From: a virus
Lineage: Duplodnaviria > Heunggongvirae > Uroviricota > Caudoviricetes
Strand: one strand, 5' to 3'
DNA length: 7,334 bases
Virus record (IMG/VR): IMGVR_UViG_2639762982_000003
The notes below the pieces were generated by a model that ran no database searches, was not told where the DNA came from, and was given only the letters and a program-made list of their open reading frames with translations. The position numbers were made by a program, and so were the translations under genes. This document shows, piece by piece, positions 2,628 through 4,834 of this stretch (its first letter is position 1; each line of letters begins with the position of its first letter).

Positions 2628-2640
2628 ACTTTTTCTCCTG

Positions 2641-2667
2641 TAAATAAAAAAGGGCCACCAGCGGCCC
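2641..2667 (-). terminator. rho-independent terminator immediately upstream of the lysis cassette
   Basis: Hairpin GGGCC (2652-2656) / GGCCC (2663-2667) with a 6-nt loop; on the minus strand it is followed by TTTTTTATTT (complement of 2641-2651). The plus strand has no T-run after the hairpin. Confidence 0.55.
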
Positions 2668-2877
2668 GTAAAAAAACACCCCATCAAAGACACCCGCAGA
2701 TGCCTTTTATGTGGTGTTATCTGATGTGATGTGCGCCTGACGTGGCTCGGAGAAAATGAAATAAAGCTTATCTGAAATTAAGGTTAATCCGGGGATTTAA
2801 ACCATTTTTAAAGCTTAGTAATATCAAATCGTCTCCTGGAGGAGACTGATGCTTATTCTTCTTCACGGACTTTGTCC

Positions 2878-2909
2878 CGCGGCGTTAATCCGACAGCCGC
2901 GCTTTTTTT
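2878..2909 (+). terminator. candidate plus-strand rho-independent terminator (antisense to late transcription)
   Basis: 6-bp all-GC stem CGCGGC (2878-2883) / GCCGCG (2896-2901) with a 12-nt loop, followed by C plus TTTTTTT (2903-2909). Confidence 0.4.
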
Positions 2910-2990
2910 GCGCTCAGTTCATTATTAGCTTTCATGGCCTTGCCACACGGGTAATATCAATGCCCGTGTATTCTTTTCTGAGTTCAGAAT

Positions 2991-3017
2991 AAAAAAAACC
3001 GCCCGATAGAGGCGGTT
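2991..3017 (-). terminator. rho-independent terminator downstream of the tRNA array
   Basis: Stem AACCGCC (2997-3003) / GGCGGTT (3011-3017) with a 7-nt loop. On the minus strand the hairpin is followed by eight Ts (complement of the A-run 2991-2998). Confidence 0.6.
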
Positions 3018-3284
3018 AAGGATGCATTTCCAGGTTTTGCTTAATATATGATTAATCTCAATGTCATGGTGTTATTTACAACACCAGAATGATGCATCAT
3101 CGGCCCCTGCCAGAAACATTGCAAATCTCTACCAATAATGCACCATTCCGGTGACGTAAAAAATGGCACTGGTGCTGCAAGCGATATCACTCCTTACAGT
3201 ACAGGGCGAGGTAAGGAGTCAGGAAAAACGCCCCACATAAAATGTGTCAGTGCCTAACACAACCTAGTATCAATCGTCCTCTGC

Positions 3285-3359
<75 letters not shown>

Positions 3360-3362
3360 ATA

Positions 3363-3438
<76 letters not shown>

Positions 3439-3440
3439 AC

Positions 3441-3517
3441 TGGACCGCCACCGGGGACTCGAACCTCGCACACTCAACTTAAAGGGTTGACGCTCTTTCC
3501 TGATGAGCTAGTGGCGG
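3441..3517 (-). tRNA. tRNA-like gene, anticodon loop CCUUUAA (UUU, Lys, in canonical register); non-canonical, possibly a pseudo-tRNA
   Basis: 77-nt cloverleaf: acceptor CCGCCAC/GTGGCGG, U8 A9, D-stem GCTC/GAGC, perfect 5-bp anticodon stem TCAAC/GTTGA, T-loop TTCGAGT, encoded CCA. Position 33 is C rather than the near-universal U, and the T-stem has an A-C mismatch. Confidence 0.5.
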
Positions 3518-3518
3518 C

Positions 3519-3594
3519 TGGTGGCCCTTGCTGGATTTGAACCAGCGACCTGGCGATTATGAGTCGCTCGCTCTCACCACTGAGCTAAAGGGCC
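3519..3594 (-). tRNA. tRNA with anticodon CAU, ileX/ileZ-like (tRNA-Ile2 read as AUA after lysidine modification, or elongator Met)
   Basis: 76-nt cloverleaf: acceptor GGCCCTT/AAGGGCC, D-stem GCTC/GAGC, anticodon loop CUCAUAA (CAU), T-stem GCTGG/CCAGC, T-loop TTCAAAT, discriminator A, encoded CCA. Closely resembles E. coli ileX as recalled. Separated from the next tRNA by 1 nt. Confidence 0.75.
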
Positions 3595-3603
3595 GGGCGC
3601 AGG

Positions 3604-3632
3604 ATAATAACGTTACGAAATCAATGTTGCAA
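3604..3632 (-). promoter_or_regulatory. candidate sigma70 promoter driving the tRNA array
   Basis: Minus-strand -35 TTGCAA (3632..3627), 17-nt spacer, -10 TATTAT (3609..3604). The predicted start falls 2-3 nt upstream of the first tRNA 5' end at 3594. Confidence 0.45.
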
Positions 3633-3699
3633 GCATTCAAAAATCACCCTTATCTCCTCCACCAGCGCATTCACCATGTCTATCCGAGATAAGTGGCAC

Positions 3700-3735
3700 A
3701 AAAAACCCGCTTGTGGGCGGGTTTTGTTTGCTTTT
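3700..3735. terminator. bidirectional rho-independent terminator, tR'-like for the minus-strand late transcript
   Basis: Hairpin CCCGC (3706-3710) / GCGGG (3717-3721) with a 6-nt loop, flanked by an A-run on one side (six Ts on the minus strand) and TTTTGTTTGCTTTT on the plus strand. Lies about 50 nt downstream of the predicted PR'-like start. Confidence 0.6.
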
Positions 3736-3776
3736 GCCATCACGTACAAAATCGGCAAAATATCAGATTTGCATGA

Positions 3777-3805
3777 AATATATGCCTTTCAATCTACTTT
3801 TGCAA
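3777..3805 (-). promoter_or_regulatory. candidate late promoter (PR'-like) overlapping the 3' end of the Q gene
   Basis: Minus-strand -35 TTGCAA (3805..3800), 17-nt spacer containing the Q stop codon, -10 TATATT (3782..3777). Predicted start near 3770; a -10-like TGaTATTTT element at about +6 to +14 resembles the sigma70-dependent pause element used for Q loading in lambdoid phages. Confidence 0.45.
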
Positions 3806-4478
3806 CACTTTGCTTTGAAAATGCCGCCTTTTGTTTTGAACGTGTTCTCATTACAAACAATAAAGCCTCACTATCAAGTCGGTGAAAAATGTGTTTCATT
3901 GCAACCCAGTGACGAGTAAATGTTTTGGACCAGTTTTTAGTTGTCACTCCCGCCAGTAATGCCAGCTCCTGGTATTCATAACCTTCCCCACCAAAAAGTT
4001 CTGCTTTTAATGCCTGCGCCGCCAGCCAGATTAATTTTTTCAGGCGTTCCTGCGTTTTCCCTGCAATTTTTCTGGTACCGGATTGAGTATTAAATTCATT
4101 CCACGCCCACTGTGTTATCGCGATCTGATATTCCCAACAAATACTCCCGCTGTAACACCACAACAACCAGGCTTTATGATGTTCTTCAAGAGACAGAACT
4201 GCCCGTCGCCATGATGATGTCGAAAACTCAACCTGACTTACCAGAGCAATTGATGAGCCTTTCGCCAGTGATTGTTTTCCCGGTATCGGTGGACTATCCC
4301 GCGTTATCATTCTTCCAGTCACTTCATCGCGGTACCGGATTTTTTTACGCCTGTAACGCCCTGTATCAAACATGGCATTCTCCTGCCAGGCTTCAAGCTG
4401 ACCTTTTGTTGCCCCACTCAAATCAGCGGTAGCGATAATGAGCTGCTCACGCACAAACTGTAAATACTGGTTATTCAT
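3789..4478 (-). CDS. putative late-gene antiterminator Q (Qin QuuQ/phage 82-like by position)
   Basis: 229-aa product from ATG 4476-4478 (track ORF starts 2 codons earlier at GTG) with GGAG upstream. Its ATG overlaps the rusA stop (ATGA). Sits immediately downstream of rusA and upstream of a PR'/tR'-like module, tRNAs and the lysis cassette, which is the canonical Q position. The family assignment rests on synteny; only two Cys are present. Confidence 0.6.
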   Translation of the reverse strand: MNNQYLQFVREQLIIATADLSGATKGQLEAWQENAMFDTGRYRRKKIRYRDEVTGRMITRDSPPIPGKQSLAKGSSIALVSQVEFSTSSWRRAVLSLEEHHKAWLLWCYSGSICWEYQIAITQWAWNEFNTQSGTRKIAGKTQERLKKLIWLAAQALKAELFGGEGYEYQELALLAGVTTKNWSKTFTRHWVAMKHIFHRLDSEALLFVMRTRSKQKAAFSKQSVAKVD

Positions 4479-4834
4479 GCGCACTCCAGTTCTGTGATTT
4501 TTATCCCCAGCCGACCACCAGGAACAGGCAGTCCGCGCACAATATTGATTTCATCAAACTGCTCGTCGTCTATGAGAAGTCCGGCATGCGTCAGCGCATC
4601 CAGTGGTGCCTTCAGGATATTGTCCAGGTCGCGGCGGCGCTTATCCGGTGGCTCTGCAATAATTTTTATTGCCAGCCTTCCGGACAGGTTTAATTTCAAC
4701 CGCTGCTGGCGAACAATTAGTGCCACATCACGGCGATAACGCTCACCGACTTTTGATACAAAATATGTGTTGCCACGACGTCGCCAGTAAGTATTCACCG
4801 TCGGCGGATAAGGCAAAACAAACTCTATACGCAT
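4475..4834 (-). CDS. rusA: crossover junction endodeoxyribonuclease RusA (Holliday junction resolvase)
   Basis: 119-aa ORF with ATG at 4832-4834 and AGAGG upstream. Protein aligns by eye with E. coli RusA, including the catalytic RRRDLDN motif and a GGRL C-terminal region. Confidence 0.85.
   Translation of the reverse strand: MRIEFVLPYPPTVNTYWRRRGNTYFVSKVGERYRRDVALIVRQQRLKLNLSGRLAIKIIAEPPDKRRRDLDNILKAPLDALTHAGLLIDDEQFDEINIVRGLPVPGGRLGIKITELECA

Follow-up and report, generated by a model that had tools for sequence, protein, structure and literature searches.

A candidate protein-free late-leader module with opposed transcription units and a cargo junction between the tRNA genes and holin of an Escherichia prophage

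The phage DNA analysed here, 7,334 nucleotides (nt) of IMG/VR record IMGVR_UViG_2639762982_000003 (Duplodnaviria; Heunggongvirae; Uroviricota; Caudoviricetes; the whole stretch is called the window below), contains a gap at positions 2641-3284 between an array of transfer RNA (tRNA) genes and the first holin gene. The gap is a conserved mosaic module of Escherichia lambdoid and P27-like prophages and is not a deletion scar. We read it, with a probability of about 0.6, as a protein-free late-leader module that combines a pair of opposed transcription units with a cargo junction. One unit would be the late-sense RNA, in which the elements A1, A2, B and D were distinguished on the minus strand, and the other would be an antisense small RNA (sRNA), named C, on the plus strand. 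The module is absent from Rfam and from annotation.

No credible open reading frame (ORF) was found in the gap, as the earlier note on this DNA had stated. The longest wholly internal ORF comprised 49 amino acids (aa), and none reached 50 aa. The four longest, of 49 aa (3041-3190, minus strand, GTG start), 47 aa (2849-2992, plus strand), 39 aa and 32 aa, gave no convincing match to Pfam and none to PHROGs, and none of them is kept as a frame among relatives. The 49-aa frame crosses both arms of hairpin A2 and was not conserved. The 47-aa frame is preceded by a good Shine-Dalgarno sequence, yet most relatives have ATA in place of its ATG. An ORF at 2235-2693 that reaches into the gap was discarded as a mechanical upstream extension of the holin, for which RefSeq gives a start at 2627. 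PGAP calls a 106-aa 'hypothetical protein' over the gap region in ATCC 8739; this frame was also rejected, since in 48 unique relatives it stays open for anything between 6 and 80 codons and its start is not constant.

Terminators were abundant on both strands. When a G+C-rich stem-loop followed by a U-run was taken as the mark of an intrinsic terminator, five sites in the gap qualified. They include the three that had been claimed before, at 3017-2997 (minus, U8), 2667-2652 (minus, U6) and 2878-2901 (plus, U7 at 2903-2909), and two additional ones, at 2945-2969 (plus) and at a long minus-strand stem of ~2716-2677 with U7 at 2676-2670. The terminator scan picked up the two minus-strand sites of the original three and skipped 2878-2901 because its loop exceeds 8 nt; RNAfold and RNAalifold predict this hairpin. 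Six terminator-like sites were counted in 2628-3284, against 0.6±0.9 in shuffled sequences. Folding z-scores were -4.26 for 2625-2760 and -4.42 for 2985-3160, both on the minus strand, and 0 of 200 shuffles were as stable. Two further hairpins of the earlier note were recovered by direct reading, a 9-bp (base pair) stem in which 3189-3197 pairs with 3211-3219 and a 7-bp stem in which 3067-3073 pairs with 3080-3086. What the earlier reader had missed is that the plus-strand terminators appear to belong to a separate antisense transcription unit. An Rfam scan, which that note had suggested, found only the tRNAs in the window and otherwise sub-threshold noise. Over the window and 18 related loci it gave tRNAs, sub-threshold CyaR, isrK/isrJ and microRNA-precursor matches, the last explained by the hairpin structure of A2, and a weak STnc100 match in the long allele of B. 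The CyaR (RF00112) match at 2992-3061 on the minus strand, with 23.5 bits against a threshold of 47 bits (E=0.88), is at chance level.

The relatives used for comparison came from a pattern scan of IMG/VR, which gave 110 loci; together with loci derived from BLAST these amounted to 54 unique full-length versions, 48 of them cargo-free. In order to assign each helix to a strand, Watson-Crick cells and G·U cells valid on one strand only were counted in the 48 unique relatives. The strand of selected pairing flipped at ~2985 and again at ~2720, as expected for two converging transcription units and a further late-sense segment. On the minus strand, the A1 closing stem gave 289 Watson-Crick cells with 36 minus-only and 1 plus-only G·U cells, A2 gave 1281 with 339 minus-only, 16 plus-only and 44 mismatches, and the first terminator of D (D1) gave 586 with 168 minus-only and 56 plus-only and two compensatory pairs. 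One pair of A2 was fully compensatory (AT in 5 relatives, GC in 43), and many GC/GU/AU series were seen. The asymmetry was reversed in the antisense block, where the 5' hairpin of C gave 248 Watson-Crick, 32 plus-only and 2 minus-only cells and the second plus-strand terminator 351, 45 and 1, with two compensatory pairs. The terminator of C at 2878-2901 showed 288 Watson-Crick cells, no G·U cell of either kind and a compensatory pair, CG (16) versus TA (32). Judged by this G·U pattern, the gap appears to consist of three blocks: late-sense from 3284 to 2989, antisense at ~2796-2980 on the plus strand, and late-sense terminators from 2718 to 2646. The terminators of the two units, with strands taken from the G·U asymmetry, face each other, 3017-2997 (minus) against 2945-2969 and 2878-2901 (plus).

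Candidate unit C begins with a promoter-like block that was near-invariant in all relatives and in a chromosomal paralog described below, where the -10 element is TATGAT. Upstream of the block lies a conserved AGGTTAAT, which forms an imperfect inverted repeat with ATTTAAACC. In every variant the 5'-terminal hairpin starts 7 nt downstream of the -10 element. When folded separately, eight distinct hairpin sequences all formed at the predicted 5' end; the most diverged members were treated one by one because the MAFFT alignment shifts their 5' hairpins by 1-2 columns. Three more members (L133, L134 and L144) came from a second scan of IMG/VR that used the 3' domain as its key; they lie in the same leader and orientation but differ in 5' hairpin and single-stranded region. 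The promoter and 3' domain are combined with no fewer than four different seed regions. The covariance model of C recovered one copy per relative plus the chromosomal paralog. When trans targets of the C seed were sought within the window, only the cis site matched. The structure and conservation of C are those of a base-pairing sRNA and its promoter is only consensus-like; C stands as a candidate gene. From these sequence comparisons we consider it probable that C is transcribed and acts by base-pairing.

The paralog lies in the yodB-serU spacer, outside any late region, and scored 49-50 bits with the C covariance model. The yodB-serU locus was present in 5418 of the 5426 E. coli genomes and the 3' domain of the paralog was detected in 5369 of the 5426. 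In MG1655 (L128, NC_000913.3) the paralog lies at ~2,043,107-2,043,188 on the plus strand (~2,043,082-2,043,181 for the sRNA-like gene) and is unannotated in RefSeq. The record of phage SerU-LTIIb (L003, 9660-9510, minus strand) also includes it because this phage sits at serU. Like C, the paralog has the promoter block (TTTAAA, 17 nt, TATGAT), a 5'-terminal hairpin, the GGAC-UUU-GUCC hairpin and a CGCGGC...GCCGCG terminator. Unlike C, which is prophage-borne, it is chromosomal and near-universal in E. coli, and the sequences of its 5' hairpin and single-stranded region differ (UUCAACAACUCUUGG). Our analysis had placed its 3' end at 2,043,181. At MG1655 2043181(+), an orphan Term-seq 3' end with the same sequence is recorded in Supplementary file 1 of Adams et al. 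2021 (PMC7815308), for LB at an optical density (OD) of 2.0 and for M63. Since the mapped end falls exactly on the predicted base, the terminator of the C family works in vivo and in the predicted orientation. No named sRNA at yodB-serU was found in the literature.

In the late-sense RNA, the inner hairpins of A1 change in sequence between haplotypes and are kept as hairpins. A2 has a minimum free energy (MFE) of -43.5 kcal/mol for 3160-3068; it has no U-run and is therefore not a terminator, and may possibly be an RNase III-type processing or stability element, an assignment we make only tentatively. The U-run that ends A1 (3155-3163) doubles as the base of A2, where UUUACG pairs with UGUAAA. 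As these bases are shared, the two structures compete, which could be an alternative-structure switch. The window carries the short allele of B. Most relatives have an unrelated, highly structured allele of ~170 nt that ends in a like terminator, and direct reading of its alignment revealed compensatory changes (GAGGCG/CGCCTC versus GAGGTG/CACCTC, and CGGG/CCCG versus CTGG/CCAG). The long allele shares the motif CGGGAGGCACCCG with the STnc100 of E. coli O157 Sakai prophage Sp10; its score against STnc100 (RF02076) was 21.7 bits, below the gathering score of 47.

Segment D is kept upstream of both P27-type and EssD-type holins and also in phiP27. In the late-sense MFE fold, UUUUCUCCG (~2756-2748) pairs with the Shine-Dalgarno region of the holin, CAGGAGAAAA (2631-2642). 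This pairing is weaker in the common allele, and a cargo insertion would part the partners by ~675 nt. A hairpin GCGCC...GGCGC at 2733-2750, just upstream of the cargo junction, shows CG to TA compensatory changes at two positions in relatives and is weakened by two mismatches in the window itself.

Related prophages were aligned with the gap, as the earlier note had proposed, and its claim of varying cargo between tRNA array and holin was borne out: L002 (CP025856) and 9 of the 110 IMG/VR relatives carry terB+DUF3927. In L002 this cassette of ~675 bp is inserted at ~2713-2717 of the window with the same flanks. The junction was empty in 77 of the 110 IMG/VR loci, held the cassette in 9, lay in a duplicated module in 2, was without a downstream anchor in 14 (at least one of these, L015, with the cassette) and was truncated in 8, all these frequencies being conditional on having C, as the relatives were retrieved by a pattern inside C. 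Spacing across the junction fell into classes of 212, ~887 and 1224 nt. The cassette is present or absent at one junction among otherwise collinear relatives, as in a moron slot, and the cargo point is a single junction inside a conserved module.

Two proposals of the earlier note stood only in part. It had called the gap an 'emptied or RNA-only cargo site'. Cargo-free relatives are the majority (77/110), the 650 bp itself is conserved, and cargo-bearing relatives have the whole 650 bp in addition to their cargo, so that nothing is missing in the window; an emptied state was thus not supported, while RNA-only held, and a structured leader or small RNAs, as also suggested there, fits the comparative data. 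The statement that the equivalent interval of Stx phages holds stxAB was true of phiP27: segment D and the lysis cassette are common to it and the window, its holin is of the same family, and stx2eAB lies between this holin and ileZ/argO. It did not apply to STEC306, the nearest Stx2 relative examined, in which stx2 lies upstream of a methylase-tRNA block and terB/DUF3927 fills the slot. In this P27-like prophage of STEC306 (L146, CP091016; 5948-8213) IS2 lies between stxA2 and stxB2, and an STnc100 match (129.7 bits) follows stxB2.

Parts of the gap were found at 75-93% identity in 563 of the 5426 complete E. coli genomes; module parts occur in ~10% of these genomes and the full antisense unit in ~5%. 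The related segments always follow tRNA-Thr/tRNA-Gly, while the holin (P27-type or EssD) and the genes upstream (Q, DUF1133, DNA methylase) vary, and alignments of relatives showed that the blocks recombine independently. The range of the C core is narrow: a scan of species-representative genomes found only Escherichia ruysiae, apart from five chance-level unrelated metagenome-assembled genomes, and gave no extra diversity. The module is duplicated in phage SerU-LTIIb (L003, KU052038), whose copies of the leader from tRNA-Gly to holin span 1273-2031 and 3179-3743, with holin1 duplicated too and the second copy lacking all of unit C. L053 (~1955-2050) and L144 carry a tandem second A2/B/C module that includes a diverged copy of unit C (58.5 bits). 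Window positions 2641-2720 were 92.8% identical to 18166-18248 of PP818812, a phage record from Actinobacillus pleuropneumoniae, a host that would not be expected for a module restricted to Escherichia.

The proposed working of the module is as follows. Late-sense RNA, started from the tRNA operon or, when Q is active, from pR', would run through A1, A2, the allele-variable and sRNA-like body of B, the cargo junction and D. In the lysogen, four to five serial terminators would keep read-through from the tRNA promoter and pR' out of the lysis genes, and Q-modified polymerase would pass them. By analogy with lambda-type late control, we regard it as quite probable that the late-sense terminators silence the lysis genes in the lysogen and that Q-modified polymerase overrides them. 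The strict Q-dependence of lysis put forward in the earlier note would reasonably follow from these serial terminators and the lambda paradigm. On the plus strand, C would be a self-contained small RNA gene with a sigma-70-type promoter, a 5' stem-loop and two terminators, converging on B. Its RNA is probably made in the lysogen and works by base-pairing; through the conserved single-stranded stretch it could reach host or phage RNAs in trans, and leaky late transcripts might also be countered in cis.

Several results weigh against this reading. The promoter-like block of C matches only 8 of 12 consensus positions and was for this reason passed over by the promoter scan, which flagged no site in the gap. 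The folding z-scores of C are weak and alike on both strands (-1.76 and -1.97). In the RNAalifold consensus structure of C (36 distinct sequences) 98.7% of cells were paired, against 96.2±0.4 in shuffled controls (0 of 500), and pairing fell to 38-51% when the partners were slid, but the sequences are closely akin and compensatory events few, so that the shuffle controls make this result look more significant than it is. The Term-seq signal at the paralog was low, with ~2,000 reads against ~6x10^7 for serU, and was absent in LB at OD 0.4. No convincing sigma-70 promoter for B or A2 was found in the scan, and B has no identified processing site. The conditional nature of the cargo frequencies belongs here as well.

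These points have to be set beside other ways of reading the gap. The hairpins could serve merely to separate the constitutive tRNA operon from the lysis cassette by ending transcription from either side, with no functional RNA product. Five or six terminator-like sites, three or four of them late-sense and two antisense, and tandem terminators that abut the ribosome-binding site of the holin and are kept before unrelated holins are what such an insulator would have. It does not account for the near-invariance of the promoter-like block, 7 nt ahead of a 5' hairpin that covaries, or of the 14-nt single-stranded stretch, nor for the seed-swapped members and the paralog with a mapped 3' end, and A2 is a 35-bp hairpin without a U-run; we therefore consider insulation alone unlikely. 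The segment, flanked by tRNA-Thr/Gly and the holin, could also be conserved as a hitch-hiker that provides homology for the exchange of cassettes, its structures being incidental. The mosaic is indeed sharp, with A1, B and C alleles that recombine independently and terB/DUF3927 present or absent at one junction; modules are duplicated in L003, L053 and L144, and the many near-identical copies suggest recent spread. However, homology at the DNA level does not predict a strand-asymmetric tolerance of G·U pairs that flips between blocks, nor hairpins that are kept through complete sequence replacement, which makes this account improbable.

That the gap is the remnant of a pseudogenised toxin or other moron gene is very improbable. 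Related phages do have genes between the tRNAs and the holin, and the annotation in ATCC 8739 might be taken for a relic of one, but the internal ORFs are too short and without convincing Pfam or any PHROGs matches, and the annotated frame has neither a constant length nor a constant start. We retain the late-leader module with two opposed units as the most probable reading.

This module has a wider bearing, as toxin genes and host-rewiring small RNAs are known to cluster in the prophage late leaders of pathogenic E. coli. The exact entry junction of terB-type cargo in these phages is now marked, and the K-12 paralog with its published transcript end offers a convenient way to study an sRNA family that may have been overlooked. 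Phage and host copies, which share the promoter and 3' domain and differ in the pairing region, amount to a natural experiment. More speculatively, C and the yodB-serU RNA might form an unnamed sRNA family in which prophages use seed-swapped copies to plug new targets or a decoy into a host regulatory input, and A1, A2 and B might be released from the tRNA transcript as further lysogen RNAs; we regard this as possible and rather doubtful. If it were true, prophage copies would keep the host promoter/operator and the Hfq-type 3' domain and replace the 5' hairpin and pairing region.

The coordinates of all features are collected in Table 1. The genes of the window all lie on the minus strand, in the order hokD, a DUF968 gene, rusA, Q, tRNAs, gap, holins, M15 endolysin and HNH nuclease. 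The region 3700-3805 on the minus strand, which gave weak, sub-threshold isrK/isrJ-like Rfam matches (22.7-24.5 bits), probably corresponds to the short pR'-tR' transcript of the phage. The first tRNA (3519-3594, minus strand) was called Met(CAT) by ARAGORN, whereas the identical gene is tRNA-Ile in RefSeq; it is probably a lysidine-modified ileZ-type tRNA, as in Stx phages. Prophages in six complete E. coli genomes matched the window at 100% identity, and one in a seventh at 99.9%. Their hosts include porcine enterotoxigenic E. coli and bovine isolates, e.g. CV839-06, and the structural genes of these prophages are of P27/HK97 type.

Table 1. Features of the gap and its surroundings (window positions; minus-strand features of the leader are given in the direction of late transcription where a stem or signal is described)
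Feature	Position	Strand	Description
Q	3789-4484	minus	
pR'-like promoter	3805-3777	minus	TTGCAA, 17 nt, TATATT; downstream of Q
tR' terminator hairpin	3725-3702	minus	follows the pR'-like site
Promoter-like site of the tRNA operon	3632-3604	minus	the operon's own
Four tRNAs	3594-3285	minus	CAT, Lys, Thr, Gly
Gap between tRNAs and holin	2641-3284		644 bp
A1	3155-3284	minus	3' trailer of the phage tRNA operon (fold and pair counts)
A1 closing stem	3254-3248 with 3171-3165	minus	encloses hairpins 3246-3234 and 3219-3189
A1 U6 run	3163-3158	minus	terminator-like end of the tRNA transcript
A2	3075-3160	minus	imperfect 35-bp hairpin with 7-nt apical loop, in late-sense RNA
B, short allele	2989-3074	minus	~60 nt of AU-rich unstructured RNA and a strong terminator (stem 3017-2997, U8 2996-2989)
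Second plus-strand terminator	2945-2969 (element 2945-2980)	plus	9-bp stem and U-rich tail; backs up C and converges on the B terminator
C terminator	stem 2878-2901, U7 2903-2909	plus	
C second hairpin	2867-2877	plus	GGAC-UUU-GUCC
C single-stranded stretch	~2852-2865	plus	CUUAUUCUUCUUCA, 14 nt, near-invariant
C 5'-terminal hairpin	2831-2846	plus	
C, candidate small RNA	2831-2910	plus	~80 nt, antisense to the late transcript
C promoter-like block	TTTAAA 2796-2801, TAATAT 2819-2824	plus	17-nt spacer
Cargo (moron) junction	2713-2717		empty in the window
D	2646-2718	minus	two tandem late-sense intrinsic terminators
D1	stem ~2716-2677, U7 2676-2670	minus	
D2	stem 2667-2652, U6 2651-2646	minus	
Holin Shine-Dalgarno sequence	2639-2635	minus	AGGAG, six bases downstream of the D2 U-run; ATG at 2627-2625
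First holin	2627-2235	minus	RefSeq start 2627; followed by second holin, M15 endolysin and HNH nuclease

Among known systems, lambda-type late control consists of a short pR'-tR' transcript and Q antitermination, with StxS as the corresponding RNA in Stx phages (PMC7547250). The window resembles it in having Q upstream, a pR'-like site, a tR' hairpin and several terminators before the lysis genes; lambda is without the extra units that the window holds downstream of the tRNAs. The candidate trailer A1 has a counterpart of another kind. The RNA 3'ETS-leuZ is a structured sRNA derived from a tRNA trailer and ends in a U-run. A1 is likewise a structured trailer directly after the last tRNA with a U-run end, and the two sequences are unrelated.

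The PasA and PasC sRNAs of the enteropathogenic E. coli strain E2348/69 (Pearl Mizrahi et al. 2021, PMC8550237; Zhu, Shabalina & Storz 2026, bioRxiv 10.64898/2026.05.13.724894) adjoin a holin/lysozyme operon, are antisense to late transcription and lie near TerB, RusA and tRNA genes, as in the window. Like C, they occur as sequence variants with a common 3' terminator domain; they differ from C in seed and structure. A blastn comparison of the gap with the PasA and PasC spacers gave nothing significant, the best E-value being 0.04 over 49 nt.

The closest likeness in layout was found in the convergent sRNA pairs that Tree et al. 2014 (PMC4104026) described in lambdoid prophages of E. coli O157 Sakai, at a moron site that lies downstream of pR'. 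In these pairs the sense RNAs STnc100/EcOnc27 face the antisense anti-sRNAs AgvB, AsxR and EcOnc03. The pairs and the predicted units of the window agree in position, between Q with the tRNAs on one side and the holin on the other, and in layout, where a late-sense RNA that ends in an intrinsic terminator meets an antisense small RNA equipped with a promoter and a terminator of its own. In Sp10, Rfam places STnc100 at 2228-2420 on the plus strand, abutting AgvB at 2421-2482 on the minus strand, just downstream of a terB-like gene. Cargo of the terB/DUF3927 type is thus nearby in both, although terB precedes the pair in Sp10 and the cargo junction follows it in the window. The O157 antisense family and C alike combine a constant 3' domain with variable 5' ends, whereas C, at ~80 nt with a 5' hairpin, is longer than the anti-sRNAs of 51-60 nt. 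Expression and Hfq binding have been shown for the O157 RNAs; unit C is a candidate predicted from sequence.

At the level of sequence the two are separate. AgvB (RF02702) and AsxR (RF02703) had no match at E<=1 in the window, against 96.5 bits for the AgvB control in Sp10, and STnc100/PasD (RF02076, threshold 47 bits) had no match in the window, with controls at 145.8, 129.7 and 93.7 bits. Comparison by eye of the AgvB, AsxR and EcOnc03 sequences (supplement of Tree et al.) with the window revealed no homology. A resemblance to GATAACAC(C/A)ACA at 2711-2700 falls within the D1 stem, on the sense strand, and was taken as coincidence. Because the architecture is shared and neither covariance models nor BLAST link the sequences, we count the window's module with the convergent sRNA pairs and place it outside every named family.

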